Under the pieces are notes generated by a model that saw nothing but the letters and a program-made list of their open reading frames with translations, had not been told where the DNA came from and did not search any database. From NCBI RefSeq assembly GCF_041886205.1, contig NZ_CP169029.1: a stretch of 64,000 nt of DNA; one strand, given 5' to 3'. This document shows, piece by piece, positions 1,592 through 36,374 of the stretch. This DNA is from Escherichia coli (GTDB taxonomy: Bacteria > Pseudomonadota > Gammaproteobacteria > Enterobacterales > Enterobacteriaceae). The first letter of the stretch is position 1, and every line of letters starts with the position of its first letter. The position numbers and the translations under genes were made by a program.

Positions 1592-2905
<1,314 letters not shown>

Positions 2906-3288
2906 TCCTGTTCTTTAACTCTTAACGTAAAAACCGCTTCGGCGGCAATGCCGATCAGTTAAGGAGCGGTTGACTGATCCTTAAACTGCGGCACTATAAC
3001 GGCTTCCACTCCAGGGAGCCGTTTTCTTATGCCACTTCTCAATGATCTGTTCGCCGCATGAGCCTCAGCGCTGATGGCGAGGTCGGAGAAAAGGTCCTGT
3101 CGCGCAATGCCATTACTCAGGCCCGGCGACGGGTGGCACCGCGCCTCTGGAATGGCTCTTTCATCAGACGGCACAGATCCGGGGAGCAGAACATTACCCC
3201 AAAGATAGCTGGCGTGTATTACAGCCCTTTGTCGTGCACGGGGGACACCGGATAGCAGGAAGTCTGGGGTATATTGCTGGCCTACAAT

Positions 3289-3370
3289 CTGATACGACGG
3301 AAAGCTACAAAGGCAGTAGAAAAGCATAAAAGAGTGCTGAAAGAAATCAGCTTCAAATTTGCCGTATCAG
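3289..3370 (+). repeat. Imperfect direct repeat, copy A (~80 bp) flanking accessory PTS/porin module
   Basis: ctgatacgacggaaagctacaaaggcagtagaaaagcataaaagagtgctgaaagaaatcagcttcaaatttgccgtatcag is repeated with roughly 85% identity at 9475..9554 in the same orientation. Confidence 0.8.
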
Positions 3371-3566
3371 AAAGTAGATGAAATCAGACATTATCTAATA
3401 TTATATTTTGGTTAAAATAGATATCAGAATTTAGCTATCCAATCGGTTTAATAAAATGAACCCGATTAAGATTGCTATGTGCTGAATGTATTTCATTTAA
3501 ATATAAATTAAAAAGTCGCCAGCAAGCTTATTTAACAGAACCGATAAAATAAAAAATGATATAAAT

Positions 3567-4613
3567 TTAGAACCAAAATTCAAGACCGGCGCGGTAAAAA
3601 TAGTCATTACTTTCTGAATTATAGGCGTCAGTTCGACCAATACGGACATAAGGGAGAAAACCATTTTCCATATTCATCATTAACTGTAAAGACGTCACTT
3701 TATCGGCGGTGTCTTTCTGGGTGACATTGTCTATTTTATAATCATTATTTTTGGCATACCCTAGCTTAGCACCATAGATACCATGCCAGTATTCGCCAAT
3801 TAAACTATAGGCATCCTGGGTGCTTTTAACATGGGTAATAAGGTCGGTCGTTTGACCATTTTTATAGCCCGCGTAAAACCTCAGACCAAGATCTGTAATG
3901 GGTATCTCGAGGCCCAAAACATAACCAGAGGCATCCTCCAGATTGTCATTTAACGTGTCATCGGTCGGTTGAACTGATTTGTTGCGAGTTTCTTCATAAG
4001 CAACATGTACTTTCACTGTAGAGAACGGCGTCCAGGTTACCCGTGAGCTGTAAGTCGTCGATCCAGAAACCGTAGAATCATCGCGATTAACGCTGAGAAC
4101 CACATCAAATCCCCCATAGTCTTTTGTTGCAAGGCTACCGTCATAGCGCACCATATTCGACATGCGATTGCTTTGATGCCAATGAACGTCACCTCCCCAG
4201 TCAAAAACGCGACCGAGACCGGGGTTGGTATAAGGCCAGTCAATGATTTCGTATAACGCCCCCTTCATGCGGCCAAAGCGAAGTTTCCCATACTTACCTT
4301 CAAACCCCACAAAGGTATCAAACTTTCCCAGACCAGAGTCGTTGGCCTCATAACCAACATAACCACTTTCAATCTGGAATATAACATTTACACCTTCAGT
4401 TATTTCTTTGTTCCCGCGAAAACCAATATATGATTCGTTATCGAGAGTATAATCATAATTCCTTTCATTGGCCTGAGTGGTAAAAATGGACATGGCTAAT
4501 TTACCATAGATTTCCAGGTTAAAATCTTTTGGCCCTCCCACTTGCATTGCATTTACTATTGTAGGCATAGTCGTAAGCAAAGAAATGCAAATAATATTAC
4601 TTGTTTTATCCAT
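3567..4613 (-). CDS. Putative outer-membrane beta-barrel porin/channel (signal peptide, C-terminal Phe)
   Basis: 348-aa ORF; N-terminal signal peptide ending ...PTIVNA; alternating hydrophobic/aromatic beta-strand pattern throughout; terminal ...GLEFWF typical of OM beta-barrels; AT-rich coding sequence. Confidence 0.7.
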   Translation of the reverse strand: MDKTSNIICISLLTTMPTIVNAMQVGGPKDFNLEIYGKLAMSIFTTQANERNYDYTLDNESYIGFRGNKEITEGVNVIFQIESGYVGYEANDSGLGKFDTFVGFEGKYGKLRFGRMKGALYEIIDWPYTNPGLGRVFDWGGDVHWHQSNRMSNMVRYDGSLATKDYGGFDVVLSVNRDDSTVSGSTTYSSRVTWTPFSTVKVHVAYEETRNKSVQPTDDTLNDNLEDASGYVLGLEIPITDLGLRFYAGYKNGQTTDLITHVKSTQDAYSLIGEYWHGIYGAKLGYAKNNDYKIDNVTQKDTADKVTSLQLMMNMENGFLPYVRIGRTDAYNSESNDYFYRAGLEFWF

Positions 4614-4833
4614 AAGTTGCCCCAGTAATTTTATATCCGAAAAGAGTAAAACCCGCCTTCATGGAGGGCTGTATTCATTACGCCATGAAAGGGCGTATTA
4701 AAATCTTTAAAAAGAAGTCTTCTGCCAGTCCTGTGAGATTTAAATCCAAAGGCAATAAGACAGAGCCAAAACCAGTGGATGACCACGCCCATAGAACGTG
4801 GTTTTCAGTTGGCAATAAATATTGAAAATAGAA

Positions 4834-5691
4834 TTATTTAGTTCTATTGATAATGTCCAGTGAAGATATTATTTTCTCCACATTATCTCCCCGATTAATA
4901 AATAATAACGCATTGAATAAAACATCAACCATAAAACTTTGTGCAGCGGTAATCGTTGATGAATCTGACTGATAAGGATTTGACGTCCCACCCGTCAGTA
5001 AGACAACATCAGCGTACTGACTTAATGAGGAATGCTTTAGTTTACTAATAACAATAGTCATCGCCCCTTTCTCTTTCACTCTTCTTAACGCATCGACAAC
5101 ATCGCGCGTTTCACCAGAGTGTGAAATCGCAACCACCACATCCTTTTTCCCAACGTTGTTCGAATTTAAGGTCATGGTATGATTGTCGATCAGAGCATCG
5201 ACGTTTGCCATAATTCTCATGAATCGATATTTGGCATACAGGACGGATATGGCTGACATACCAATGCCGTAGAAATAAACCTGCCCCGCTTTGCTCAGAC
5301 CGTCAGCTGCACGCATTAGGGTCTGTTCCTCTTGCAGGGCAAGCGTTTCATTGATAACAACGTAATTATCATTAGCCAGCTGTTGTGCAATCCCTGTCAT
5401 GGAGTTCGTCTGCTCATCAAGAGAAATCACTTTTGATAACAATGTATCGTCTGTATCTGTTTCCAGGCGAAGAGTCGTCTTTAATTCTGAAAAGCCCTTG
5501 TATCCCAGCTTTTTACAAAACCGAATAATAGACGCCTCACCAACATTCATTGCATCCGCTAATTTTGCAATGCTCATATTGATGAATTGCATACGATTAT
5601 TTTTAATAAACTGGTAAATACGTATTTCAGTCTGGGTCAATTCATTAATTCTGGTGTTAATTAACGTGTTAAAGACGACTCGGGTTTTCAT
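4834..5691 (-). CDS. RpiR-family transcriptional regulator (HTH + SIS domain)
   Basis: 285-aa ORF; N-terminal HTH segment (IAKLADAMNVGEASIIRFCKKLGYKGFSELK) and C-terminal SIS-like region (VVVAISHSGETRDV); last gene of the PTS operon, 7 bp downstream of the IIA gene. Confidence 0.85.
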   Translation of the reverse strand: MKTRVVFNTLINTRINELTQTEIRIYQFIKNNRMQFINMSIAKLADAMNVGEASIIRFCKKLGYKGFSELKTTLRLETDTDDTLLSKVISLDEQTNSMTGIAQQLANDNYVVINETLALQEEQTLMRAADGLSKAGQVYFYGIGMSAISVLYAKYRFMRIMANVDALIDNHTMTLNSNNVGKKDVVVAISHSGETRDVVDALRRVKEKGAMTIVISKLKHSSLSQYADVVLLTGGTSNPYQSDSSTITAAQSFMVDVLFNALLFINRGDNVEKIISSLDIINRTK

Positions 5692-5698
5692 TAAGTAC

Positions 5699-6004
5699 TC
5701 ACTCCATCTTTTTATAAACCTCTATCAATTCTGTCACAAGTTCACGGCAAAGCATACCTGTCATAAGGTGATCTTGGGCGTGAACCATCACCAGAGTGAT
5801 TTGCAGTTTACCTACCCCCTCATCCAGACCAATTAGCCGAGTCTGCACCTCGTGTGCCTGCCTGAAGGCATCGTCAGAAACCTTTAAAGAGGCTTCCGCT
5901 TCAGCAAAGCTCCCCGCTTTGGCGAACCTGAGCGCCTCCATGGCACAACTGCGACCTTCGCCAGCGGCGATAATCAGCGACATCACATCATTTTCATAGC
6001 TCAT
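5699..6004 (-). CDS. PTS EIIA component, lactose/cellobiose family
   Basis: 101-aa ORF with size and helical pattern of the lactose/cellobiose IIA family; conserved His region (VMVHAQDHLM). Confidence 0.85.
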   Translation of the reverse strand: MSYENDVMSLIIAAGEGRSCAMEALRFAKAGSFAEAEASLKVSDDAFRQAHEVQTRLIGLDEGVGKLQITLVMVHAQDHLMTGMLCRELVTELIEVYKKME

Positions 6005-6040
6005 TTAAATTATCTCGTGTTAGGTATCGGTGGATACGAT

Positions 6041-6352
6041 TCATTTTGATGAAATCAGATCAACGGCCTGTTGATACACTTTTTCACCATTCATAGCCCC
6101 ATACAGTAACGGGCTGATGGCCTCTGATTTCTTGCCATTCATTTCTGCCAGCTTTTGTATTTCCGTCAGCTTAAATCGAATCTGAGGCGCAACCAGTACG
6201 ACGTCATAATTCGCGATGACATCTTTCAGAACATCAACGCCGTGAGCTTCAATAACTGATTCATGGCCGACGGAATTGGCGTAATCTTTCATTCGCTTCA
6301 TTAACATTGAGGTAGACATTCCCGCAGCGCACACTAAAAGTATCTTATTCAT
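6041..6352 (-). CDS. PTS EIIB component, lactose/cellobiose family
   Basis: 103-aa ORF starting MNKILLVCAAGMSTSMLMK; the phospho-Cys loop CAAGMSTS is diagnostic of cellobiose-type IIB. Confidence 0.9.
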   Translation of the reverse strand: MNKILLVCAAGMSTSMLMKRMKDYANSVGHESVIEAHGVDVLKDVIANYDVVLVAPQIRFKLTEIQKLAEMNGKKSEAISPLLYGAMNGEKVYQQAVDLISSK

Positions 6353-6376
6353 AGCAATTACCCGTCATTGATAAAA

Positions 6377-7921
6377 TTATGTCACAGTAATATGTAAACC
6401 ACTCATCCGCCGGAAAGGGGCGGAAATGGAAGTGATCGTAGGACTGCGGCCGTTAAAGCTATAGTGAATATTTTCCATCCAGGTCTTTTCGATTTCAGAC
6501 TTAATTTTATCGAACACCATCGTTTCCTTTTCTTCAAATGAGGAATAGCTCTGGCCAATTGAAGGTAAATATTCAAACTGAACAGGGAAGCGGACTTCGG
6601 TCTGGTAAGCCCAGTCCGATACCAGCCTTTCTTTTAAGAAACGTTCGATAGCGTCAGCATTATCGCCCATGGTCGAAAAGACAAGGTTCGCTATCCCCGT
6701 ACCTAACGAATTACACGTTGTGTTCCAGCCTGCGTAGCCCTTAATGGTATCGAGTGCGCCGGCTTTATCCAGCGCCCGAATAAGTTCAGTTTCACCGCCG
6801 TTTGACATCGCCACATCGATGACTACCACTGACACCTGCAAAGCTCTGCTGGCAATTTCTTTTGCATAGGTCACCAGGTCACGATGGGTGTAGTAAGTGA
6901 TATTTTTATACTTTGGCTTCCGCACACCGGTATGCAGGTTATAGCCATAGCTAATATCAAAAGCCTCCTGCATTATCTCACCGCACCCATTGATCGCTAA
7001 AACAGGCAGCGAGGCATCATTATCGACCAACGTTATACCCGACGCGGCTGCATACGAACGCAGTGAGTGTATAAAAGGACGATCTTCATAATTCGGGATA
7101 TAGGTTTTAAACAGTTCGTTTGAATAGAGTGTGGTGGCTATAAAATCCTTTTTCCTCATCGACAAATAGGCTTTGGTCAACAATGTGCATCCAGACTCAT
7201 CGGTGCCAGGATGAACAAACACCCGGTCCTGTACCCCAAGCAGGGATATCTTTTCGTAAATGCGTTCCTGATCCTGCATCGTAAAACCAAATTCCGCGGT
7301 ATCGTCCAGCGGGATTATCAGCTGATCGATAATCTTTTCATCAACGAGTTCTATCGCATTCTCAATGAGCTGCAGATTTTTACTTCTGCGCGACAGCCAG
7401 TCGTCAAAGGAAGCAGAATTAATAGCGGAACGATGTGCAAGCAGATGCGCTTTTTCGTCTTCGCTCAGCCCGACACGCTTCTCTTTGTCAGACAGATAAC
7501 CAACCTGAAAAATTGAATGCCCGATATGTGCATAGTAATCCGGTTCTTCTTCACTGGAATTATATTTTGGCGTACGTAGCACCAGTGAAGATGCATAAAT
7601 CTTAAGTGCCGGATAACTTTCTTTCAGTGTTTTAATTTTATTTAACCTTGCTATAAGCTCAGTTAATTCCATCTGATGAATACGCGCGGGAAAAAGTCCA
7701 CCGTAGAGATACATATCCAGGCTGATAATTAACGCATCGGAATCGGCACAGTGGCTGTTTATAAAGTCATCTACAGCCTGATGTGAAGCTGGTTGTTTTT
7801 TGTATCCTAAAATCTCTTTCGCTGGCATTTTTAACGAAATATTGCTGTCCATCGAGGCCAGAGAAATCAGGAAGTCATAGTTATAAGGTCGGATATCCAG
7901 AGGTATGCTAATTATATTCAT
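6377..7921 (-). CDS. Uncharacterised 514-aa protein embedded in PTS operon (possibly DUF4127-like)
   Basis: Long intact AT-rich ORF, tightly spaced between the IIC and IIB genes (15 bp and 24 bp gaps); no signal peptide or TM segments evident; no catalytic motif I can assign by eye. The family guess comes from memory of size and PTS context only. Confidence 0.6.
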   Translation of the reverse strand: MNIISIPLDIRPYNYDFLISLASMDSNISLKMPAKEILGYKKQPASHQAVDDFINSHCADSDALIISLDMYLYGGLFPARIHQMELTELIARLNKIKTLKESYPALKIYASSLVLRTPKYNSSEEEPDYYAHIGHSIFQVGYLSDKEKRVGLSEDEKAHLLAHRSAINSASFDDWLSRRSKNLQLIENAIELVDEKIIDQLIIPLDDTAEFGFTMQDQERIYEKISLLGVQDRVFVHPGTDESGCTLLTKAYLSMRKKDFIATTLYSNELFKTYIPNYEDRPFIHSLRSYAAASGITLVDNDASLPVLAINGCGEIMQEAFDISYGYNLHTGVRKPKYKNITYYTHRDLVTYAKEIASRALQVSVVVIDVAMSNGGETELIRALDKAGALDTIKGYAGWNTTCNSLGTGIANLVFSTMGDNADAIERFLKERLVSDWAYQTEVRFPVQFEYLPSIGQSYSSFEEKETMVFDKIKSEIEKTWMENIHYSFNGRSPTITSISAPFRRMSGLHITVT

Positions 7922-7936
7922 GTGCTCTTTCTCTGA

Positions 7937-9259
7937 TTATTTCTGTTTATTCATGGCGAAAACAAATGGCAGATAAATGATAACCGACAAGCTGATTAAA
8001 AATACGGATAGCACCGCAGCTCTCCAGTCTCCTCCCGTAGCCAGGAAGGCGCTAATCACTGGTGGCGTTGTCCATGGCACAAGAACATATGTATGGTTAA
8101 TCAAATCCATTGCCGTCGCGGCATAAGCAATCACGATGCTGATAATCGGAGTGAATAAAAATGGTACAATTAGCACCGGGTTGAACATAATTGGCAAACC
8201 AAAAATGATGGGTTCATTTATGTTGAACAACATCCCAGGAGTTGCCAGACGAGTAATCGCACGATGCTCTGATTTTTTCGCTGCAATCCATAAAGCAATC
8301 AGTAAGCCGATTGTCTGGCCTCCGCCGCCCATAAATCCAAAGGCATCGATGAACGGTTTTGTGACGATATGTGGGATTTCAAGGCCAGCCTTAAACGCGG
8401 CAGTATTTTCCTGAATCGCCACCAGCAGGGTTGTCTCAGTAATAGGGTACATGATACTGGCACCATGGATCCCTGCCCACCATAATCCGTTTTGCGTCAA
8501 AAGTAGTCCTATTACTCCGCTCAGACCCTGTAAAATATTTTGCAGCGGAGCCTGAATCATCAGAGTAACGATTTCATGTATGTTTTTGTTGAAGAGACTG
8601 CTTAACGACCATGCAAAGAGACTCAGCAAGGTTAACACCAGGATCATCGGTATTAATACGTTAAAGCTCCTTGATACGGAGGGGGGAACTGAATCAGATA
8701 AAGTAATTTTCAATTTAGATGAGGCCGAAACTTTGCGAAAAAGTTCAGTGGAAATAAGCGCCACAAATATGCCTACAAACATACCAGACGCGCCACTTTC
8801 ATTGCCGCTGATTAGCCCCGAAACCTGAAAAACCTCGCCCGTCGGCGCTGTAACGGGAATGGTGACCGGGAACAAAACAAATAAACATGCCAGTGAGAAG
8901 ATGGCATACGTTATCCCATCCTCGCCATAGCTGTTGGCTAATCGATATGAAATCATCACCGTTGCCAGAAAGGCGAGAATATTCAGCGTTCCGTTATAGA
9001 CGCGGATGCCAATTTCCTGTAGGTGGCGAACCCATGCGCCTTCCAGCCCCAGAAAACCGACTAAACCGGATTCGCCGTTGAGCAATACATTATTTATTAA
9101 TATAAATAGAGACGCAGCAATAATTAAAGGCATGAGCGCGACAAATGATTCCCTCACTGCCGAAAGATGTCGCTGTCCTGAAAAATCGCCCGCCCAATTA
9201 GAGATCTTGTCAATGAAAACAAGACCACTCCCACTTTTAATTTTATTGATGAAATTCAT
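7937..9259 (-). CDS. PTS EIIC permease, lactose/cellobiose family
   Basis: 440-aa polytopic membrane protein with multiple hydrophobic segments; first gene of the operon IIC-unknown-IIB-IIA-RpiR. Confidence 0.85.
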   Translation of the reverse strand: MNFINKIKSGSGLVFIDKISNWAGDFSGQRHLSAVRESFVALMPLIIAASLFILINNVLLNGESGLVGFLGLEGAWVRHLQEIGIRVYNGTLNILAFLATVMISYRLANSYGEDGITYAIFSLACLFVLFPVTIPVTAPTGEVFQVSGLISGNESGASGMFVGIFVALISTELFRKVSASSKLKITLSDSVPPSVSRSFNVLIPMILVLTLLSLFAWSLSSLFNKNIHEIVTLMIQAPLQNILQGLSGVIGLLLTQNGLWWAGIHGASIMYPITETTLLVAIQENTAAFKAGLEIPHIVTKPFIDAFGFMGGGGQTIGLLIALWIAAKKSEHRAITRLATPGMLFNINEPIIFGLPIMFNPVLIVPFLFTPIISIVIAYAATAMDLINHTYVLVPWTTPPVISAFLATGGDWRAAVLSVFLISLSVIIYLPFVFAMNKQK

Positions 9260-9474
9260 ATAAGAAAATCTCGCGCCCTAGATATTAGTTTCAGCGTATT
9301 TTATTTATCCCCTTTCGTAATACTGTTAGCTTTGTCACAAAACTCCAAAAATTCCAACTAAAATGATACTAAATGGAGTTTTTTTGGTTTTGTAATCTAC
9401 CGTTCTGGAGTCTGGTATTAACAATAAAAGCGGCTTTCGCAGGAGGATAAATCATCAGCATTTGTCCAGACAAG

Positions 9475-9554
9475 CTGATACGACGGGAAGCTATAAAGGT
9501 ACAGAAAAGCATAAAAGAGCGCCGTTAGAAATCAGCTTTAAATTTGCCTTTCAG
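9475..9554 (+). repeat. Imperfect direct repeat, copy B (partner of 3289..3370)
   Basis: ctgatacgacgggaagctataaaggtacagaaaagcataaaagagcgccgttagaaatcagctttaaatttgcctttcag; same orientation as copy A. Confidence 0.8.
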
Positions 9555-9759
9555 TTTATACAACAGAAATGATAGTGCCGGGAAACACGTCGTCGCCGGG
9601 AATGCTCCCAAGAGACTGGAGTATCGGAGGGGAAACCTGGAAGCGCTGTTCATAACAAAACGCCCCGACCGTCAAGGCCGCGGGTGGTGAAGATATCAAA
9701 ACGTCCATGCTGTTCCGCTTAAGTGAACGGCATTGCGCTGCAGTGGGTTTTTTATGCCT

Positions 9760-10584
9760 TCAAAGTAGTAGCGGTAGGGTCGCACTCGCCGTTTGCTGGC
9801 TCACATCGTTGTACTTTTCATCCAGTCCAAACAGCGACGTGGTGAGCAGTTCCACCAACAGCATGACACCAACCTTGGCGTTTAGCGCGCCAGCACTCAA
9901 CGGACCTTCTGGTTTGGCTGCGACCAGTTGAATATCACTCAGCGAAGCCAGCGGACTATGCGGTGTATTACTCAGCGCCAGTATGCGTACACCTTGCTTA
10001 CGCGCCAGTTTAACCACATGCAGCAGATCGCGTGTGGAGCCTGAACTGGATATTGCCACTACCAGCGTGTCTTTGCTTAGCGTTGTAGCGTTCATAGCAG
10101 CACGGTGCATGTCGCTGAACAATTGCGCGGGTTTGCCGAGGCGCAGGAGTTTGTAATGTAAATACTCTCCCAGAATAGCGCTGGCCGCTACGCCATAAAT
10201 TTGTACCGACTGAGCCTGATGCAGCGCCAGAGCGGCTGCTTCCAGTAATGTTCTGTCGAGTAATTTTGCCGTGTCCTGCAGCGCTTGCACGGATTCATTG
10301 ACGACATTGTCAATCTCATCACCGCTGCGCTCTACCAGCTCTCCTTGCCGGAGATCGAGTGCCAGCGCCATCTTAAATTCGTTATAGCCCTTACACCCCA
10401 GCGTACGGCACAGACGTGTGACGCTCGCCTCGCTGGTGTCGCTTTCACGCGCCAGTTCGGTAATCGTCAGGTAGACCACTCTTGCCGGATCGCTAAGCAC
10501 AAACTCTCCCAGCTTCTGTTGAGTTCGACTATATCCATCAACGCTCTGGCGCAATCTCAGCAGTAGGTTTTCATTTTCTGACAT
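9760..10584 (-). CDS. RpiR/MurR-like transcriptional regulator (HTH + SIS)
   Basis: 274-aa ORF; N-terminal HTH (ITELARESDTSEASVTRLCRTLGCKGYNEFK), SIS-type C-terminal domain (LVVAISSSGSTRDL); divergent from the EIICB gene. Confidence 0.85.
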   Translation of the reverse strand: MSENENLLLRLRQSVDGYSRTQQKLGEFVLSDPARVVYLTITELARESDTSEASVTRLCRTLGCKGYNEFKMALALDLRQGELVERSGDEIDNVVNESVQALQDTAKLLDRTLLEAAALALHQAQSVQIYGVAASAILGEYLHYKLLRLGKPAQLFSDMHRAAMNATTLSKDTLVVAISSSGSTRDLLHVVKLARKQGVRILALSNTPHSPLASLSDIQLVAAKPEGPLSAGALNAKVGVMLLVELLTTSLFGLDEKYNDVSQQTASATLPLLL

Positions 10585-10710
10585 GCAAAATCCTTAATGC
10601 GTTTCTCTGCCGATAGTGTGGCGGAAAGTAGGGGAGAGATGCTAGTCATTTTAAAAAAGTATGATCGGTGCCCTGGTTTTTGATGGTAATTTTCATTTTT
10701 ATAATTAGTT

Positions 10711-12306
10711 GTGGTAAAAATTTTCATCAAAGAGCGGGGAGATGAAAAAATGATGCAAATATTTAGCGGCGCTTCGTCAGGCGCATGGTTTGAAAAAGCG
10801 CAGCGGTTCGGCAAATCGTTCATGCTGCCGATTGCGGTATTGCCCGCAGCGGGGTTGTTGTTGGGGATTGGTGGGGCTCTGTCGAATCCCAATACGCTGA
10901 CGGCCTACCCATTCTTGAATGTCGACTGGCTGCAGGCAATTTTCACGATCATGACCAGCGCAGGTTCTATCGTGTTTGCCAACCTGTCGGTGCTTTTTGC
11001 GGTTGGTGTTGCCGTGGGACTGGCGAAAACGGATAAAGGCACGGCGGGCCTTGCGGCATTGCTGGCTTTTCTGGTGATGAATGCCACCATCAATGCTTTG
11101 TTAACGCTCAACGGAACGTTGGCGCACGAAAATCCAGGTGCTGTGGGCCAAGGGATGACGCTGGGCATTCAGACGCTGGAAACGGGCGTTTTTGGCGGGG
11201 TCGTGATTGGTCTGGTCACCTGCGCACTGCATAACCGTTTCAATAAAGTCTCACTCCCTCAGTTTCTTGGCTTTTTCAGTGGTTCGCGTTTTGTACCGAT
11301 TATCAGTTCGCTTGCCGCGATTGTAGTGGGGGTGATCATGACGGTGGTATGGCCGCATTTCCAGAAGCTCATTTTTGGACTGGGCGGTCTGGTGGATGCG
11401 ACGGGCTATCTGGGGACGCTACTGTATGGTTTCATTCTGCGTATGCTTGGCCCACTGGGTTTACACCATATCTTTTATTTGCCGTTCTGGACAACAGCGC
11501 TGGGAGGGAGCGAAATCGTCAACGGTCAACTGGTCGAAGGCACCCAGCGTATTTTCTTTGCCCAACTTGCCGATCCGAATACGCAGCAGTTTTATGCCGG
11601 TACCTCGCGCTTTATGTCCGGGCGCTTTATCACCATGATGTTTGGCCTGCTTGGCGCATGCCTCGCGATGTACCACACGGCAAAACCGGAGAAGAGAAAG
11701 CTTGTCGCCGGACTGCTGTTGTCGGCGGCCCTGACTTCTTTCCTGACGGGCATCACTGAGCCTATTGAGTTCTCCTTCCTGTTTGTGGCTCCGGTGTTAT
11801 ATGTCATTCACGCCTTCTTCGATGGTCTGGCGTTTATGATGGCGCATATTTTACATATCACTATTGGGCAAACCTTTTCGGGTGGACTGATCGATTTCCT
11901 CCTCTTCGGCGTGCTACAGGGGGAAGCGAAAACCAACTGGATGTACGTCCCCTTGGTTGGGGTTCCGTGGTTCTTTCTTTACTACTTCACCTTCCGTTAT
12001 TTGATTAACCGTTTTAACTGGCTGACGCCCGGGCGCGAGAACACAGCCCAGGTGGAGTCCGGTCTGCCTCAGAGCGAACGCGCAGCGGCAGTCATCGCCG
12101 GACTGGGAGGCAAAGAGAATCTGGAAGAGGTGGACTGTTGCGCCACACGCTTACGCGTGACGGTGAAAGAGAGCAGCAAGGTAGATGAAGCTGCGCTGAA
12201 AGCGACCGGAGCGCGTGGCGTAATTATTCGCGGCAACGGTGTTCAGGTGATTTATGGCCCGCATGTCACCATAATTAAAAATGAAGTCGAAGAGATCTTA
12301 TCATGA
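10711..12306 (+). CDS. PTS EIICB component, glucose/N-acetylglucosamine superfamily
   Basis: 531-aa ORF; N-terminal IIC membrane domain, C-terminal IIB domain with the phospho-Cys motif ([11 protein letters not shown]). The start may instead be an internal Met at about 10750 (MMQIFSG...). Stop overlaps the next gene's start (ATGA). Confidence 0.85.
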
Positions 12307-12995
12307 TGAAAACTGTACTGGATTCCCTGAAAGGTAAACTAATTGTCTCCTGCCAGGCGCTGGAAAATGAACCCCTGCACAGCCCGTTTATTATGTCGCG
12401 TATGGCGCTGGCGGCAGCGCAGGGCGGTGCGGCAGGTATCCGTGCTAACAGCGTGGTAGATATTCGCTCGATCAAAGAGAGCGTCTCCCTGCCGGTAATA
12501 GGGATTATCAAGCGTGATTATCCGGGCTGCGAGGTGTTTATTACGGCCACTTTGCAGGAAGTGGATGAGCTGATGACCGTTGAGCCGGAAATTATTGCTC
12601 TGGATGCGACAGCGCGCCCGCGCCCCGGTGGGCAAATGCTGGAAGAGCTGGTTATGCAAATCCGTGTCCGCTATCCGTCCGTACTGCTGATGGCGGATAT
12701 CGCCACCGTCGATGAGGCGGTAACAGCCGAGCGGCTGGGTTTTGACTGCGTGGGCACCACGCTCTATGGCTATACCGCGGACACTGCCGGGCATGTAATG
12801 GTGGATAACGACTGCGGTTTTTTACGTGAGGTGTTGGCGGCGGTCACAATACCGGTCGTGGCGGAAGGTAATATCGATACCCCGGAACGCGCCGCACGTT
12901 GCCTGGCATTAGGCGCGCATACCGTGGTGGTTGGAGGCGCTATCACGCGTCCGCAGCAGATAACGGCACGATTTGTCGCGGCGATCGCCTCGTAA
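12303..12995 (+). CDS. Putative N-acetylmannosamine-6-phosphate 2-epimerase (NanE family)
   Basis: 230-aa ORF ([26 protein letters not shown]...) with NanE-like TIM-barrel pattern; translationally coupled to the EIICB gene. Confidence 0.8.
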
Positions 12996-13066
12996 AGCAT
13001 CGATGGGGCATGATACTTTGGCGGGGATCTGCGATAATTAACGTTTATCCCCATATTGAGAGCGCT

Positions 13067-13738
13067 ATGCAGTACCCGATTAACGAGATGTTCCAGACCC
13101 TGCAAGGTGAGGGTTACTTTACCGGCGTCCCCGCCATTTTTATTCGTTTACAGGGATGCCCGGTTGGCTGTGCCTGGTGCGACACCAAACACACCTGGGA
13201 AAAGCTTGAGGATCGGGAAGTCTCCCTTTTCAGCATTCTGGCGAAGACCAAAGAGAGTGATAAGTGGGGGGCGGCGAGCAGTGAAGACTTGCTGGCTGTC
13301 ATTGGTCGCCAGGGATACACCGCGCGGCATGTGGTGATTACGGGGGGGGAGCCTTGCATTCATGATTTGCTGCCACTGACTGACCTACTCGAAAAGAACG
13401 GTTTTAGCTGCCAGATCGAAACCAGTGGTACTCATGAAGTACGCTGCACACCGAATACCTGGGTTACCGTATCGCCAAAGCTGAACATGCGCGGCGGCTA
13501 TGAAGTGTTGTCACAGGCACTGGAGCGAGCCAACGAAATCAAGCATCCTGTGGGGCGCGTACGCGATATTGAAGCACTGGATGAACTACTGGCAACGCTG
13601 ACCGATGATAAACCGCGAGTCATTGCACTGCAGCCGATTAGCCAAAAGGATGATGCCACACGATTGTGCATTGAAACCTGTATTGCGCGTAATTGGCGTT
13701 TGTCGATGCAAACACATAAATATTTAAATATTGCCTAA
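13067..13738 (+). CDS. queE: 7-carboxy-7-deazaguanine synthase
   Basis: Start taken at the internal ATG 13067 of ORF 12899..13738 (MQYPINEMFQTLQGEGYFTGVPAIFIRLQGCPVGCAWCDTKHTW), giving a 223-aa radical-SAM protein with CxxxCxxC-type cluster motif. Confidence 0.93.
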   Translation: MQYPINEMFQTLQGEGYFTGVPAIFIRLQGCPVGCAWCDTKHTWEKLEDREVSLFSILAKTKESDKWGAASSEDLLAVIGRQGYTARHVVITGGEPCIHDLLPLTDLLEKNGFSCQIETSGTHEVRCTPNTWVTVSPKLNMRGGYEVLSQALERANEIKHPVGRVRDIEALDELLATLTDDKPRVIALQPISQKDDATRLCIETCIARNWRLSMQTHKYLNIA

Positions 13739-14077: not shown

Positions 14078-14350
14078 GAGTTCCCCGCGCCAGCGGGGAT
14101 AAACCGTTCGCTGGCAATCCACTCAGGAATTTCGGGAAGAGTTCCCCGCGCCAGCGGGGATAAACCGGGCAGTACCGACATGGACGGTCACCACGAGTTG
14201 AGTTCCCCGCGCCAGCGGGGATAAACCGTGTATAGCGCCAAAATTGACGAAAGACATGTTGAGTTCCCCGCGCCAGCGGGGATAAACCGGTTGTAGCTGA
14301 CAATGTAAATCATGGATTTACGAGTTCCCCGTGCCAGCGGGGATAACCAT
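14078..14350 (+). CRISPR. Type I-E CRISPR array: 5 repeats (last degenerate), 4 spacers of 32 bp
   Basis: 29-bp repeat GAGTTCCCCGCGCCAGCGGGGATAAACCG at 14078, 14139, 14200, 14261; degenerate terminal repeat gagttccccgtgccagcggggataaccat at 14322..14350. Spacers at 14107..14138, 14168..14199, 14229..14260, 14290..14321. Confidence 0.97.
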
Positions 14351-14360
14351 TCAGGTATGT

Positions 14361-14930
14361 TCAGGCCGGGCAGTTTCCCGCCCGGCCTTCCTCACTTACG
14401 CATTCGACCAGCTCTGGATCGAATCCGCATTCCCCATGCATCACTTCATACGATTTTTTCAGTATTACATCATTATGTTTGGTTAGGTCTTTGAAAATGC
14501 CTTTATTCATCGCGTCGTAGCGTTTGGCATTGCTCTCAATCGGTATAAAGATATCTTTCACGCGAACCATTTTGTCGACAGCCGTTGCGTAATCCGGGTA
14601 TAGTCCCAGACCTACCGCCGTATTAATCGCTGCCCCCAGACTTGCACAACCGTTAATGGCGTTACGTCGTGCCGGAAGGTTGAACATGTCGGCAAAAATC
14701 TGCATAAACAGATCGCTGTTCGAACCGCCGCCAGTAATGATCACATGCTTTGCAAAGTGATTCATTTCATTACGCATATTGTCGTAATTGTTCTTCAGCG
14801 TCAGAGCCACGCTTTCCAGTATCGAACGATATATCCATGCGTAACGCGCAAGCGCTGCCTGCAATACCGGCACCAATAATAATAATGTCGCAGTCATCTT
14901 CCGTGTCATACCCCAAATATCCAGACTCAA
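14361..14930 (-). pseudogene. ygcE: 3' remnant of FGGY-family sugar kinase (ygcE-like), N-terminal ~300 codons missing
   Basis: ORF encodes only a C-terminal FGGY-like segment (...HVIITGGGSNSDLFMQIFADMFNLPARR...); a full kinase would be ~490 aa, but queD begins only ~50 bp upstream, so no room for the N-terminal domain. Confidence 0.7.
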
Positions 14931-14980
14931 CTCCCTGACCGAGCCTTACTTAAGGGAAATTGACCGCCGACACACTCTTA

Positions 14981-15346
14981 TCATTCGCCGCGATAGATAC
15001 AACCTGCGGTGCAGGTTTCTTTTACCATCACCGCACTTAACAGCGGCACAACGGGTTTAACCTGATCCCAAATCCATTTTGCTAAAACTTCGCTGGTTGG
15101 GTTTTCCAGACCTGGAATATCATTGAGATAATGGTGATCGAGGCGCTCGTAGGTTGGCTTAAACGCCGCTTTCAGTTCAGCGAAATCGATAATCCAGCCC
15201 GTATGCGGATCGACTTCCCCGGTAATTTCCAGTCGCACCATAAAGGAATGCCCGTGCAGGCGACCACATTTATGCCCTTCCGGGACGTGTGGTAAGCGGT
15301 GAGCGGCTTCGAAGGTGAAATCTTTAAATAACGTGGTGGACATCAT
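14981..15346 (-). CDS. queD: 6-carboxy-5,6,7,8-tetrahydropterin synthase
   Basis: Start taken at internal Met ([35 protein letters not shown]...), 121 aa; divergent from cysJ. Confidence 0.93.
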
Positions 15347-15661
15347 AATTTCTCTACAGGACGATAAAACCGCCGTAGAGTACCGGAAAGGCTGTTTTTT
15401 CGCATTATCTAAAACGACTTTGTTGCGCAAAATCGCTGATTTATCTTATTGATGGGCAATATTCATTTGTTTTTCATTAGGTTGGTTAATCTATTTTGTT
15501 GTTAAAGACTATTGCTAAAACAGGTTAGTCGATTTGGTTATTAGTTATCGCTATCCCGTCTTTAATCCACACCGTTCACCCCGTTAACCTTACCTTCTCT
15601 TCTGTTTTATGGGCGCTGACAGGGCGCAGAAACAGCTTTGCTTACTGGAACATAACGACGC

Positions 15662-17461
15662 ATGACGACACAGGTCCCACCTTCCGCGTTGCTTCCGTTG
15701 AACCCGGAGCAACTGGCACGCCTTCAGGCGGCCACGACCGATTTAACTCCCACCCAGCTTGCCTGGGTTTCTGGCTATTTCTGGGGCGTGCTCAACCAGC
15801 AGCCTGCTGCGCTTGCAGCGACGCCAGCGCCCGCCGCAGAAATGCCGGGTATAACTATTATCTCTGCTTCGCAAACCGGCAATGCGCGCCGGGTTGCTGA
15901 AGCATTACGCGATGATTTATTAGCAGCAAAACTGAACGTTAAGCTGGTGAACGCGGGCGACTATAAATTCAAACAAATCGCCAGCGAAAAACTGCTTATC
16001 GTGGTGACGTCAACGCAAGGGGAAGGGGAACCACCGGAAGAAGCCGTCGCGCTGCATAAGTTCCTGTTCTCCAAAAAAGCGCCGAAGCTGGAAAACACCG
16101 CGTTTGCCGTGTTTAGCCTCGGCGATAGTTCTTATGAATTTTTCTGCCAGTCCGGGAAAGATTTTGACAGCAAGCTGGCGGAACTGGGTGGTGAACGCCT
16201 GCTCGACCGTGTCGATGCCGATGTTGAATACCAGGCTGCTGCCAGCGAGTGGCGCGCCCGCGTGGTTGATGCGCTTAAATCGCGTGCGCCTGTCGCGGCA
16301 CCTTCGCAATCCGTCGCTACTGGCGCGGTAAATGAAATCCACACCAGCCCGTACAGCAAAGACGCGCCGCTGGTGGCTAGCCTCTCTGTTAACCAGAAAA
16401 TTACCGGGCGTAACTCTGAAAAAGACGTTCGCCATATCGAAATTGACTTAGGTGACTCGGGTCTGCGTTACCAGCCGGGTAACGCGCTGGGTGTCTGGTA
16501 TCAGAACGATCCGGCACTGGTGAAAGAACTTGTCGAACTGCTGTGGCTGAAAGGCGATGAACCTGTCACCGTCGAGGGCAAAACGTTGCCTCTGAACGAA
16601 GCGCTACAGTGGCACTTCGAACTGACCGTCAACACCGCCAACATTGTTGAGAATTACGCCACGCTTACCCGCAGTGAAACACTGCTGCCGCTGGTGGGCG
16701 ATAAAGCGAAGTTACAGCATTACGCCGCGACGACGCCGATTGTTGACATGGTGCGTTTCTCCCCGGCACAGCTTGATGCCGAAGCGCTAATTAATCTGCT
16801 GCGCCCGCTGACCCCGCGCCTGTATTCCATCGCCTCCTCGCAGGCTGAAGTCGAGAACGAAGTACACGTCACCGTTGGCGTGGTGCGTTACGACGTGGAA
16901 GGCCGCGCCCGTGCCGGTGGTGCCTCCAGCTTCCTCGCGGACCGCGTGGAAGAAGAGGGCGAAGTCCGCGTATTTATCGAACATAACGATAACTTCCGCC
17001 TGCCCGCTAACCCGGAAACCCCGGTGATTATGATTGGCCCAGGCACCGGCATCGCGCCGTTCCGCGCCTTTATGCAGCAACGTGCTGCCGACGAAGCACC
17101 GGGTAAAAACTGGCTGTTCTTTGGCAACCCGCACTTTACGGAAGATTTCCTCTACCAGGTGGAGTGGCAGCGCTACGTCAAAGAGGGTGTGCTAACGCGG
17201 ATCGATCTCGCCTGGTCGCGCGATCAAAAAGAAAAAGTTTACGTACAAGACAAACTGCGCGAACAGGGCGCGGAGCTGTGGCGCTGGATCAATGACGGTG
17301 CCCACATTTATGTCTGCGGCGACGCTAATCGCATGGCGAAAGACGTTGAGCAGGCACTTCTGGAAGTGATTGCCGAATTTGGTGGCATGGACACCGAAGC
17401 GGCTGATGAATTTTTAAGTGAGCTGCGCGTAGAGCGCCGTTATCAGCGAGATGTCTACTAA
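15662..17461 (+). CDS. cysJ: Sulfite reductase [NADPH] flavoprotein alpha subunit
   Basis: 599-aa ORF with flavodoxin-like N-terminus and FAD/NADPH reductase C-terminus (...RYQRDVY); stop overlaps cysI start. Confidence 0.96.
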
Positions 17462-20245: not shown

Positions 20246-20398
20246 ATGCTGACAAAATATGCCCTTGTGGCAATCATCGTACTGTGTTGTACAGTACTGG
20301 GATTCACGCTGATGGTAGGCGACTCGTTGTGTGAGTTGAGTATCAGAGAACGTGGTATGGAGTTTAAGGCAGTTCTCGCTTACGAATCGAAGAAGTAG
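20246..20398 (+). CDS. Hok/Gef-family type I toxin-like small membrane peptide (50 aa)
   Basis: Unlisted small [53 protein letters not shown]: single TM helix followed by the Hok signature ...SLCE(L/I)..R.....E.A...AYES.K; GGAGG RBS upstream (gcagggaggcaagacATG). Confidence 0.7.
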
Positions 20399-20399
20399 C

Positions 20400-20635
20400 C
20401 ACCACGCGGGGGGTAAAATCCCGCGTACTGAATTGTGATGGTTTGGTCTCCTGCACCCTTTTTAATTTATATTGTTTATGTGAATATTATGCCTGTGTTT
20501 ATTATTTATATGTTTTATAGATGAAAACCATTGAATTATTCACAATGTAAATATTTTAATGAACGATATATATCACAGATAATTTTTAATATATGCGTAA
20601 ATATCCTTTAAGTTTTACGAAAGGATAAAAACATT
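20400..20635 (+). promoter_or_regulatory. AT-rich cas3 upstream/promoter region
   Basis: Strongly AT-rich ~230-bp tract immediately upstream of the cas3 start; in K-12 the equivalent region holds the H-NS-repressed cas3 promoter (from memory). No -10/-35 assigned. Confidence 0.45.
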
Positions 20636-22063
20636 GTGACTTTCTTTGATTTCTGGGGAAAAAACCGACGCGGCGAGAAAGAGGGCGGCGACGACTATCA
20701 TCTACTTTGCTGGCATTCGCTGGATGTAGCCGCGATGGGCTATTTAATGGTTAAAAGCAATTGCTTCGGGCTGGCTGACTATTTTCGTCAACTAGGTTTC
20801 GATGATACGGAGCAGGCAGCACAATTTTTCGCCTGGCTATTGTGCTGGCACGATATTGGAAAATTTGCCCGCTCTTTTCAGCAACTTTATCTGCATCCAC
20901 AACTCAAGGTTCCGGAAGGCGCAAGAAAAAATAACGAAAAGATCTCTCATTCAACGCTGGGTTACTGGTTGTGGAATCATTATTTAATTGAATGTGACGA
21001 GTTGCTTCCTTCCTCTTCACTCTCTCCCCGCAAACTTAAACGGGTAATAGCGATGTGGATGCCCATGAGCACGGGGCATCATGGTCGCCCACCTGACCGT
21101 ATTGATGAACTGGATAATTTTCTGCCTGAAGACAAAGTTGCCGCGCGAGATTTTCTCCTTGAAATCAAGTCACTGTTCCCGCTCATAGAGATCCCCACAT
21201 TCTGGGATGATGACGAGGACGTTGAACTTATAAAACAACTTTCCTGGTATATCTCTGCAACCGTCGTACTTGCAGACTGGACAGGATCGTCAACGAGATT
21301 TTTTCCACGCGTCGCACACCCAATGGATATTAAAGATTACTGGCAGAAGGCTTTAGTGCAGGCTCAAAACGCCTTAACCGTCTTTCCTCCAAAAGCAGAA
21401 ACCGCACCTTTCACCGGAATTAATACACTGTTTCCTTTTATTGAGAATCCGACACCGTTACAGCAAAAGGTGCTGGAACTGGATATCAGCCGGCCCGGGC
21501 CACAGTTATTTATTCTGGAGGATGTAACCGGCGCAGGTAAAACAGAAGCGGCGCTTATCCTGGCGCACAGGTTGATAGCTGCGGGGAAAGCTCAGGGGCT
21601 GTTTTTTGGTCTGCCAACAATGGCAACGGCCAATGCCATGTACGATCGGCTGGTCAAAACCTGGCTTGCTTTCTATTCGCCAGAATCCCGCCCCAGCCTG
21701 GTGCTGGCACACAGTGCCCGCACATTAATGGACCGCTTTAATGACTCACTCTGGTCCGGTGATTTAGTCGGGTCAGAAGAACCGGATGAACAAACGTTCA
21801 GTCAGGGATGTGCAGCCTGGTTTGCCGACAGTAACAAGAAGGCTTTACTGGCTGAAATTGGCGTCGGCACGCTGGATCAGGCGATGATGGCAGTGATGCC
21901 GTTTAAACATAATAATCTGCGGCTTCTGGGGTTGAGTAACAAAATCCTGCTGGCTGATGAGATCCACGCCTGTGACGCTTACATGTCGTGCATTCTTGAA
22001 GGGCTGATCGAGCGGCAGGCGCGTGGCGGAAACAGCGTTATTTTGCTTTCTGCTACGTTATCT
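20636..22063 (+). pseudogene. cas3: Truncated cas3 (type I-E): HD nuclease plus first half of helicase core; 3' half deleted
   Basis: ORF begins at GTG 20636; HD motifs (LLCWHSLDVAA, CWHDIGKF), Walker A (VTGAGKTEAA) and DExH box (LLADEIHA) present; coding sequence ends ...NSVILLSATLS and runs directly into a CRISPR repeat at 22064. Intact Cas3 is ~890 aa; only ~476 codons remain. Confidence 0.85.
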
Positions 22064-22214
22064 GTGTTCCCCGCGCCAGCGGGGATAAACCGCCATTCTT
22101 GTTGTCGTTCATCAAGCGCAGGGGGTGTTCCCCGCGCCAGCGGGGATAAACCGGGTAAATAACACAGCGTTTGAAACAGGCAAAAGTGTTCCCCGCGCCA
22201 GCGGGGATAAACCG
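22064..22214 (+). CRISPR. Residual type I-E CRISPR array (iap-proximal): 3 repeats, 2 spacers, no leader
   Basis: Repeat GTGTTCCCCGCGCCAGCGGGGATAAACCG at 22064, 22125, 22186; 32-bp spacers at 22093..22124 and 22154..22185. Differs from the queE-adjacent array repeat at position 2 (T vs A). Confidence 0.95.
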
Positions 22215-22330
22215 GCGCAATACGGTGCGGTTTTCCCGGAAGTAAACCGGGCGCACTGGATGCGATGATGGGTATGACTTAGAATTCCCCGCCCCTGCGG
22301 TAGAACTCCCAGCTCCCATTTTCAAACTCC

Positions 22331-32398: not shown

Positions 32399-33391
32399 AT
32401 GAGTCAGAATACGCTGAAAGTTCATGATTTAAATGAAGATGCGGAATTTGATGAGAACGGAGTTGAGGTTTTTGACGAAAAGGCCTTAGTAGAAGAGGAA
32501 CCCAGTGATAACGATTTGGCCGAAGAGGAACTGTTATCGCAGGGAGCCACACAGCGTGTGTTGGACGCGACTCAGCTTTACCTTGGTGAGATTGGTTATT
32601 CACCACTGTTAACGGCCGAAGAAGAAGTTTATTTTGCGCGTCGCGCACTGCGTGGAGATGTCGCCTCTCGCCGCCGGATGATCGAGAGTAACTTGCGTCT
32701 GGTGGTAAAAATTGCCCGCCGTTATGGCAATCGTGGTCTGGCGTTGCTGGACCTTATCGAAGAGGGCAACCTGGGGCTGATCCGCGCGGTAGAGAAGTTT
32801 GACCCGGAACGTGGTTTCCGCTTCTCAACATACGCAACCTGGTGGATTCGCCAGACGATTGAACGGGCGATTATGAACCAAACCCGTACTATTCGTTTGC
32901 CGATTCACATCGTAAAGGAGCTGAACGTTTACCTGCGAACCGCACGTGAGTTGTCCCATAAGCTGGACCATGAACCAAGTGCGGAAGAGATCGCAGAGCA
33001 ACTGGATAAGCCAGTTGATGACGTCAGCCGTATGCTTCGTCTTAACGAGCGCATTACCTCGGTAGACACCCCGCTGGGTGGTGATTCCGAAAAAGCGTTG
33101 CTGGACATCCTGGCCGATGAAAAAGAGAACGGTCCGGAAGATACCACGCAAGATGACGATATGAAGCAGAGCATCGTCAAATGGCTGTTCGAGCTGAACG
33201 CCAAACAGCGTGAAGTACTGGCACGTCGATTCGGTTTGCTGGGGTACGAAGCGGCAACACTGGAAGATGTAGGTCGTGAAATTGGCCTCACCCGTGAACG
33301 TGTTCGCCAGATTCAGGTTGAAGGCCTGCGCCGTTTGCGCGAAATCCTGCAAACGCAGGGGCTGAATATCGAAGCGCTGTTCCGCGAATAA
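32399..33391 (+). CDS. rpoS: RNA polymerase sigma factor RpoS (sigma-38)
   Basis: Start at internal ATG 32399 ([21 protein letters not shown]...), 330 aa, sigma-70 family regions 2-4; codon 33 is GAG (Glu). Confidence 0.96.
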
Positions 33392-33408
33392 GTAAGCATC
33401 TGTCAGAA

Positions 33409-33442
33409 AGGCCAGTCTCAAGCGAGGCTGGCCTTTTTCTTT
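33409..33442 (+). terminator. Rho-independent terminator downstream of rpoS
   Basis: aggccagtctc-aagc-gaggctggcct hairpin followed by tttttctttt. Confidence 0.75.
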
Positions 33443-33511
33443 TGTTTGGGGAGTCGATGTGTTTTGTCGCCTGGATAAGACATGTCAGCGTCCCACCCGG
33501 CAATCAGCATC

Positions 33512-33919
33512 CTATTTGCTCATCATCTTGCGCACCAGCTGCATAAACAGCTCCTGCTCTTCTCCACTCAAACGCCCCAAAAATTCCTCATCCACGCTGT
33601 CACCAATGGGGATCGCCGCAGCAAGTACCTTTTCTCCTTCGGCAGTCAGCCAGACAAAGCGTCGCCGCTTGTCAGCGGCGTCATGTTCACGTCTGACTAA
33701 GCCACGATTTTCCATTCTTGCCAACATTTCTGCCAGCGTTGCTTTGGTGCTGACGGCTGCTTCCATCAGTGCAACCTGTTCGATACCAGGCTTATCAGCA
33801 ATGGCGCGCATCACCGCGTACTGCGGTTTGGTCAGATCAGGTAGCTCATGCTGCCAGCGAGATGTGTGCTGCTGAAAAAGCTGTCGTAACTGATGGAACG
33901 CTTTATTTCGTAACGCCAT
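33512..33919 (-). CDS. MarR/SlyA-family transcriptional regulator
   Basis: 135-aa ORF with winged-helix MarR pattern (LTKPQYAVMRAIADKPGIEQVALMEAA...); divergent from the decarboxylase cluster. Confidence 0.85.
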   Translation of the reverse strand: MALRNKAFHQLRQLFQQHTSRWQHELPDLTKPQYAVMRAIADKPGIEQVALMEAAVSTKATLAEMLARMENRGLVRREHDAADKRRRFVWLTAEGEKVLAAAIPIGDSVDEEFLGRLSGEEQELFMQLVRKMMSK

Positions 33920-34065
33920 GTAAACTCCGGGCTAATTCTCTGCCGCTATCATAGCGGTTTTTCAGTGACGAAGAAGATGTTGTTACTTTTCAGTGCTTGC
34001 CGCGATGAAAACAGAGGCGTATTTTAATAATAACGTTCGTATACGAACAATTAAGAGAATAAACA

Positions 34066-34659
34066 ATGAGACTGATCGTCGGGATGACAGGGGCTACCGG
34101 TGCGCCTCTTGGGGTGGCATTACTGCAAGCGCTGCGTGAGATGCCGAATGTCGAGACTCATCTGGTGATGTCAAAGTGGGCGAAAACCACCATTGAACTG
34201 GAAACGCCTTACAGCGCCCGCGATGTTGCTGCCCTCGCAGACTTCAGTCATAACCCGGCGGATCAGGCGGCGACCATCTCCTCAGGTTCCTTTCATACCG
34301 ACGGCATGATCGTTATTCCGTGCAGTATGAAAACGCTCGCCGGTATCCGTGCCGGTTACGCCGATGGCCTGGTAGGGCGCGCGGCGGACGTCGTGCTCAA
34401 AGAAGGCCGCAAACTAGTGCTGGTGCCGCGTGAAATGCCGCTTAGCACCATCCATCTCGAAAATATGCTCGCACTTTCACGCATGGGCGTGGCGATGGTG
34501 CCGCCGATGCCTGCCTTTTATAACCATCCCGAAACGGTAGAGGACATTGTCCACCACGTGGTAGCCCGCGTGCTGGATCAATTTGGCCTCGAACATCCCC
34601 ACGCCAGGCGCTGGCAAGGATTGCCGCAGGCCCGGAATTTTTCTCAGGAGAATGAATAA
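34066..34659 (+). CDS. ecdB: UbiX-like flavin prenyltransferase (decarboxylase B subunit)
   Basis: 197-aa ORF MRLIVGMTGATGAPLGVALLQALRE...; flavoprotein UbiX/Pad1 family signature. Symbol from memory of the O157-type rpoS-mutS segment. Confidence 0.85.
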   Translation: MRLIVGMTGATGAPLGVALLQALREMPNVETHLVMSKWAKTTIELETPYSARDVAALADFSHNPADQAATISSGSFHTDGMIVIPCSMKTLAGIRAGYADGLVGRAADVVLKEGRKLVLVPREMPLSTIHLENMLALSRMGVAMVPPMPAFYNHPETVEDIVHHVVARVLDQFGLEHPHARRWQGLPQARNFSQENE

Positions 34660-36086: not shown

Positions 36087-36096
36087 GGAGAAGAAG

Positions 36097-36333: not shown

Positions 36334-36374
36334 TAAAAAAGTGCCGGGTAGAGGCTTTGCTTTACCCGGCCTCA

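Follow-up and report, generated by a model that had tools for sequence, protein, structure and literature searches.

In Escherichia coli K-12 MG1655 the genes of this region lie in the order queD-ygcN-O-P-Q-R-S-U-W-yqcE-ygcE-CRISPR II-queE. The ygc genes form a sugar-metabolism cluster whose products include an FAD oxidoreductase with ferredoxin, ETF alpha and beta subunits, two MFS transporters, two dehydrogenases, a GlpP-like antiterminator, and an FGGY kinase. The last is encoded by ygcE (b2776), described as a putative FGGY-family sugar kinase. CRISPR papers use ygcE-ygcF as landmarks of the locus only, and we found no paper that gives the ygc cluster a function or describes the deletion allele reported here. 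The closest counterparts of this allele are microhomology-mediated (illegitimate, RecA-independent) deletions in general and lesions at the same locus in two other genomes. In E. coli CT02, ygcN and ygcO are lost together with part of ygcP, and the gap is bounded by IS1. Escherichia sp. E1V33, the representative of a separate GTDB species, carries a separate ygcN'-'ygcE fusion in the queD-queE interval (fusion region 2471-3600). Here ~250 nt of ygcN meet ~840 nt of ygcE at an overlap of ~1 bp, and the ygcE remnant contains an additional internal stop. The 0.7-kb spacer between ygcE and queE in E1V33 also contains an 87-aa ORF (3777-4040).

The DNA analysed here (the window) is a 64,000-nt stretch of an E. 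coli genome, contig NZ_CP169029.1. Its order around the locus is queE (plus strand, ending at 13738), an AT-rich leader, a CRISPR array, a hairpin, an ORF of 189 codons, queD, and cysJ (plus strand, from 15662). The array (14078..14350, plus strand) is a type I-E CRISPR II (2.2-3) array with five repeats and four spacers, parsed from the sequence and annotated as CRISPR in E. coli 6EVA (NZ_CP138428.1), and its terminal repeat is degenerate. The left-hand neighbour of the scar, queD (14981..15346, minus strand; 6-carboxytetrahydropterin synthase), is intact. A 2-kb slice around the scar is 100% identical to 6EVA, and over the first 32 kb of the window the identity is 99.98%, with six mismatches and one 1-nt indel. 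The queE gene (13057-13738) has an intact 223-codon frame in the window, yet is labelled 'frameshifted' in the 6EVA annotation. A run of eight G residues within it (13342-13349) is the same in both genomes and, being read alike, is probably not the site of the indel.

BLAST comparison with K-12 places the breakpoints precisely. Positions 14839-17000 of the window correspond to K-12 2,892,722-2,890,560 and positions 14263-14844 to K-12 2,903,507-2,902,918. These two colinear blocks overlap by exactly six bases of the window (14839-14844), which read TTACGC on the minus strand and GCGTAA on the plus strand and form the deletion junction. The hexamer is found in K-12 both in ygcN (nt 61-66; 2,892,717-2,892,722) and in ygcE (nt 1023-1028; 2,902,918-2,902,923). 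Absent from the window relative to K-12 are 10,201 bp, that is, one copy of TTACGC and everything between the two copies: ygcN codons 23-423, ygcO, P, Q, R, S, U, and W, yqcE, and ygcE codons 1-341. An earlier sequence-only reading of this stretch had proposed an alignment of this kind as a check on breakpoints and microhomology, and the alignment located the junction and the 6-bp repeat. The K-12 gene order on which that reading drew, given as ygcN through yqcE together with the 5' part of ygcE, matches MG1655, and the case that it had held open against itself, a K-12 arranged in the same way, does not apply, as K-12 has the whole block between queD and CRISPR II.

We propose, with a probability of roughly 0.93, that the interval is the scar left when one deletion removed 10,201 bp, and that the allele arose once, was inherited by ~5% of sequenced E. 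coli, and has since accumulated later changes. The deletion would have joined codon 22 of ygcN to codon 341 of ygcE at the 6-bp direct repeat and removed the whole ygcNOP / ygcQRSUW / yqcE-ygcE cluster. Neither stub would then be able to make a functional protein, ygcN being out of frame and ygcE lacking its N-terminal domain. Judging from the structure of the junction, the mechanism was most likely RecA-independent illegitimate recombination or replication slippage between the TTACGC copies. The flanks are colinear, the repeat is present twice in K-12 and once here, and the junction contains no bases from a mobile element. The allele thus resembles other microhomology-mediated deletions in its seamless junction and in the one retained copy of the 6-bp repeat, and has nothing unusual about it. 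A span of 10.2 kb is large for deletions at 6-bp repeats but within the known range. A repeat of 6 bp is short, and the microhomology could be partly coincidental.

A mobile element could also have produced the loss, either through an IS-mediated adjacent deletion or through recombination between two IS copies. IS1 did make a different deletion at the ygc locus, in CT02, and one carrier of the allele described here, XJ5.2, has an IS1 insertion nearby. At the scar itself, however, ygcN runs straight into ygcE via the six bases common to both, neither an IS end nor any foreign base intervenes, and the same clean junction is found in all seven aligned carriers. We regard involvement of an IS as extremely unlikely, and the clean junction led us to reject an IS-mediated origin. 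The CT02 lesion is alike in locus and outcome (loss of ygc function) and differs in having IS1 at the junction.

The deletion ends ~0.5 kb from a type I-E array, and CRISPR self-targeting selects for large deletions. If a spacer of the array had once matched the ygc block, the survivors could have been cells that had deleted the target. Against this, none of the 25 unique spacers in three carriers (the window, B7A, and H10) matches the K-12 block, the best alignment covering 16/18 nt (E 0.4), and the window strain has just a fragment of cas3 left. A historical spacer against the ygc block, later lost, is possible; escape from self-targeting as the cause of the deletion nevertheless has a very slim chance of being correct.

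As to polarity, the short arrangement might be ancestral, with K-12 and most other E. coli having gained the ygc block; E. coli genomes in general differ by many islands, and the nearby interval between queE and eno of the window does hold a strain-specific PTS/porin island. However, the gap lies between two truncated genes, each of which is completed by an intact ORF in K-12, and no insertion could have restored, in frame, both the 5' 1,022 nt that ygcE lacks here and the 3' 1,206 nt that ygcN lacks. The intact 10.9-kb block (at least 80% coverage) is present in 5,061 of 5,426 complete E. coli genomes (93%), including K-12, O157:H7, and ST131. Outside E. coli, ygcN adjoins queD in E. albertii, E. 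whittamii, Escherichia sp. MOD1-EC7003, and Citrobacter sp. MGH106, that is, in three other Escherichia species and one Citrobacter. This prevalence and the outgroup arrangement indicate that presence of the block is ancestral. The K-12 block also does not look like a genomic island: it has no annotated mobility genes, and the outgroups have ygcN at the same place. The likelihood of a gain in K-12 is therefore negligible in our view, and the reciprocal truncations, the 93% prevalence, and the presence in outgroups led us to reject that polarity. The evidence supports a deletion scar in the window and not an insertion in K-12, as the sequence-only reading had concluded; the reciprocal truncations, the seamless repeat junction, the prevalence, the outgroups, and the substitutions shared among carriers (below) all bear this out. 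One argument of that reading falls away, namely that the position of the fragment beside the terminal CRISPR repeat speaks for a deletion. The array is the usual neighbour of the ygcE 3' end and lies outside the deletion, so this ordinary ygcE-CRISPR II arrangement adds nothing on polarity.

What remains of ygcE is a 449-nt 3' remnant (14396..14844, minus strand), which corresponds to nt 1023-1479 of K-12 ygcE minus 8 bp. It is colinear with K-12 2,902,918-2,903,507 beside CRISPR II and queE, and it is orthologous to K-12 ygcE by both identity and synteny, in the same place and with the same downstream hairpin. It differs from K-12 ygcE in keeping the last 449 nt only, with the frame broken at both ends and the rest of the cluster gone. 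Upstream of it is a 66-nt (22-codon) stub of the ygcN 5' end (14839..14904, minus strand), which includes the shared 6 bp, followed by the native queD-ygcN intergenic spacer (14905..14980, minus strand; 76 nt, compared with 77 nt in K-12). The ygcE homology accordingly ends at 14844 and not at 14930, the start of the ORF. The ygcE fragment had been described as directly abutting queD; the queD stop (14981) is indeed 50 bp past the start of the ORF, but the remnant itself is separated from queD by the ygcN stub and the spacer. The stub encodes the start of the FAD-binding GxGxxG motif and gives a weak DAO match (E 0.0028, residues 10-26). The position of the ygcN start codon (14902-14904) reads ACG in the window strain, not ATG. 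The ygcN frame enters ygcE out of frame in a 48-aa ORF (14770-14916, minus strand) and ends at 14770 after 48 codons, so no in-frame fusion protein is possible.

The 189-codon ORF (14361-14930, minus strand, TTG start) is a chimera of an out-of-frame ygcN part, the ygcE 3' part, and a frameshifted tail. Its residues 1-29 derive from the ygcN 5' end and the queD-ygcN spacer, read out of frame. Residues 30-169 align by BLASTP with residues 342-481 of K-12 YgcE (135/140 identical, 96%, E 2e-97), which disposes of the possibility, raised with the original observation, that the ORF is a complete small gene unrelated to ygcE. The last 20 residues lie past a frameshift, which results from the loss of one copy of the 8-bp tandem repeat TGGGGAAT. 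This repeat has two tandem copies in K-12, in every sampled intact strain, and in most deletion carriers, and one in the window (14429..14436, minus strand; located by alignment to K-12 and other alleles). The second copy was lost by 8-bp slippage, which puts the last ygcE codons out of frame. In Pfam searches the ORF matches FGGY_C (PF02782) only (E 2.9e-16), and the match is incomplete, covering profile positions 121-196 of 198, while that of K-12 YgcE covers positions 1-196. FGGY_N (PF00370), the ATPase/sugar-binding half, has no match in the 189-aa ORF and is matched by K-12 YgcE (E 5.2e-19). The sequence-only reading was therefore right about a C-terminal fragment of an FGGY-type, ygcE-like kinase, and too generous about its length, since ~140 residues and not ~180 are in the native frame.

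In principle the product of the ORF could be a small protein with a function, such as a shortened kinase domain that has taken on a new role, given that its 189 codons are uninterrupted and a TTG start is present. This has an exceedingly low probability. The first 29 codons are out-of-frame ygcN and intergenic sequence, the last 20 come from a frameshift that is absent in most carriers, and just the last third of FGGY_C is kept, with the N-terminal domain gone. The promoter scan gave no convincing candidate. Half of the six carrier-specific substitutions (below) change an amino acid, consistent with relaxed constraint, and PGAP calls a pseudogene. The RefSeq (PGAP) annotation of 6EVA describes 14396-14843 as 'FGGY-family carbohydrate kinase; frameshifted; incomplete; missing N-terminus', so the pseudogene itself is already routinely flagged. 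The ygcE remnant has no start codon, promoter of its own, or FGGY_N domain and is therefore a pseudogene. It does not belong among functional FGGY kinases, FGGY_N being lacking and FGGY_C partial.

Between the ygcE stop and the terminal CRISPR repeat, positions 14351-14395 are noncoding and contain, directly past the stop, a hairpin with perfect 9-bp arms (14363..14388; AGGCCGGGC, an 8-nt loop, and GCCCGGCCT), to which no strand is assigned. The hairpin is kept in carriers and in intact strains, ST131 excepted. It may terminate transcription where ygcE and the CRISPR array are read towards each other. It has no T-tract and was not called by the terminator scan; searches for promoters and terminators in the scar and in the K-12 leader gave nothing above the expectation from shuffled sequences.

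The identical junction was found in 285 of the 5,426 complete E. coli genomes (5.3%). Exactly this number was obtained twice, with junction-spanning probes taken independently from the window and from strain B7A. Carriers come from humans, cattle, pigs, poultry, mice, dogs, pandas, and water, and include the serotypes O113:H21, O128:H27, and O27:H7 as well as strain B7A. The scar is an ordinary strain polymorphism in E. coli. It had been described as specific to one lineage, which holds in the sense of an allele shared by descent at ~5%, and not in the sense of an event private to the window strain.

The origin of the allele was assessed by aligning seven carriers with seven intact alleles. 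The junction is identical in all seven carriers. Over the 449 nt of the remnant, carriers are 0-3 sites apart and 12-20 sites from any of the seven intact alleles. Six fixed derived substitutions are present in all seven sampled carriers and in no sampled intact allele, and three of these change an amino acid (C365R, V394M, and T464N in K-12 numbering). Across 5,372 genomes, carriers have at least 97.5% identity to the remnant of the window, and the best intact genome has 95.5%. The six shared substitutions and this gap in identity indicate a single origin. The queD-side (left) flanks of carriers resemble several different intact alleles, which indicates that recombination has reshuffled the flank since the deletion. 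At the locus, these comparisons support a carrier allele that appears to be shared by descent; strict clonal descent of whole genomes would go beyond these data.

The variety of left flanks, and the many serotypes and hosts among carriers, would also be expected if the same junction had formed repeatedly at a microhomology hotspot in different strains, and E1V33 shows that ygcN-ygcE fusions can recur. Recurrence at one hotspot is, however, difficult to reconcile with six remnant substitutions that are common to all sampled carriers and found in no intact allele, or with a clean gap between at least 97.5% and at most 95.5% identity in 5,372 genomes. The E1V33 allele is likewise a fusion of a ygcN 5' stub to a ygcE 3' remnant, but its breakpoints differ, as expected if TTACGC is no special hotspot. 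We consider recurrent origin very unlikely.

Under a single deletion, the order of later events may be reconstructed from their distribution among carriers. The six substitutions in the remnant, three of them changing an amino acid, would have followed the deletion, an order suggested by their absence from intact genomes; an unsampled or extinct intact ancestor that already had all six is possible. The 8-bp repeat-slippage frameshift would then have occurred in the sub-branch that includes the window and, in a still smaller sub-branch including the window strain, a cluster of 11 changes would have destroyed the ygcN start codon.

Two sub-alleles can be distinguished. Type 1, which includes the window, retains one 8-bp copy, and its CRISPR array is a single fused one beside the remnant; it corresponds to the 19 genomes with at least 99% identity to the remnant of the window. 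Type 2 (sampled in B7A, H10, and STEC1585) has both 8-bp copies, with CRISPR 2.3 and CRISPR 2.2 separate and ~0.5 kb apart, and makes up the large majority of carriers, roughly 266 of 285 genomes as judged by identity bands. In the sampled type 2 carriers, CRISPR 2.3 is longer than the array of the window (17 spacers in B7A), the ~0.5 kb that follows it is AT-rich, and CRISPR 2.2 is degenerate. The first bases of the CRISPR repeat also differ, being GAGTTCCCC in the window and GTGTTCCCC in type 2.

The 11-change cluster is concentrated in a patch of 50 bp (14896..14945, minus strand; defined by alignments) with ten substitutions and a 1-bp deletion relative to K-12, including the change of the ygcN ATG to ACG. 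The patch spans the queD-ygcN spacer and the ygcN start, a region that otherwise hardly varies across Escherichia species; these have the K-12-like sequence here, as does Citrobacter, in which it is still recognisable. It was found in ~12 of the 5,426 genomes, and all 11 genomes among the matches listed by name are deletion carriers. Among the matches listed, we found no intact-block E. coli with the patch, the next best identity being 92.3%. A metagenome scan for a 22-mer of the patch returned two contigs, both with the same deletion junction. The comparison with strain PT62 is informative, as the two sequences have no differences at the 449 sites of the remnant, 11 differences within 51 alignment columns at the patch, and one difference in queD. 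PT62 retains the K-12-like spacer while its remnant is identical to that of the window, and uniform neutral decay therefore cannot explain the patch. A search for a donor did not find the exact 22-mer in ~100,000 species-representative genomes. No suitable direct or inverted repeat that could have served as a local template lies within 1.1 kb, and templating from a quasi-palindrome or local repeat was rejected on this ground. The patch may have come in as a short stretch from an unsampled donor, or a single episode of error-prone repair may have produced it.

The ygc cluster has also been damaged independently elsewhere in the genus, as in CT02 and E1V33. PGAP flags pseudogenes in four of six sampled intact blocks, affecting ygcQ and ygcS (an O157:H7 strain), ygcU (O169:H41), ygcW (N5D43), and yqcE (WP2-W18-CRE-03). 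These pseudogenes suggest relaxed selection on the whole ygc cluster across the species. A further ~80 E. coli genomes have neither the intact block nor the junction of the window. The loss described here fits a wider decay of a dispensable cluster.

A further-reaching possibility is that loss of the ygc cluster was favoured and not merely tolerated, and that the patch is one multi-base event kept because it silenced an orphaned regulatory element. Two Escherichia lineages have independently fused ygcN to ygcE, a third has lost ygcN-ygcP via IS1, and most of the sampled 'intact' clusters have a pseudogene, all of which would be expected if loss were favoured. We consider this idea unlikely. 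If it were true, the element silenced by the patch would otherwise drive transcription antisense into the CRISPR array.

With a single inherited deletion as the preferred reading, the allele is one more presence/absence polymorphism of E. coli, in which a ten-gene cluster beside CRISPR II is dispensable and repeatedly lost. Typing of CRISPR II by its 'ygcE-ygcF' flanks should expect a truncated ygcE in ~5% of strains, and a primer that anneals within the first 1,022 nt of ygcE is predicted to fail in carriers. The junction sequence is a clean marker of the carrier haplotype. Carriers also provide natural ygc knock-outs in many backgrounds, which could help to find the substrate of the cluster.

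Other parts of the window differ from the usual gene content as well. The type I-E cas operon (~20593-22223) is almost wholly missing; a 1.47-kb N-terminal fragment of cas3 is annotated in 6EVA, and after it come a small remnant of CRISPR 2.1, with repeats at ~22064-22223, and then iap. With the cas operon nearly gone, both CRISPR arrays of the window are orphans without cas genes. Between cysH and the cas3 remnant, a gene for a Hok/Gef-family toxin is annotated at ~20246-20398, similar to the hokX/sokX locus of K-12. The eno-queE interval (~1600-13000), where K-12 has only yqcG and ygcG, holds a strain-specific island of ~10 kb that encodes a porin, two MurR/RpiR regulators, PTS IIA, IIB, and IIC components, a DUF4127 protein, a ptsG-like IIBC gene, a NanE-like epimerase, and a fragment of an IS4 transposase. 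Finally, the variable region between mutS and rpoS (~32400-37000) contains pphB, the hydroxyarylic acid decarboxylase subunits B, C, and D, and a MarR-family regulator, a gene set that presumably differs from that of the K-12 interval.
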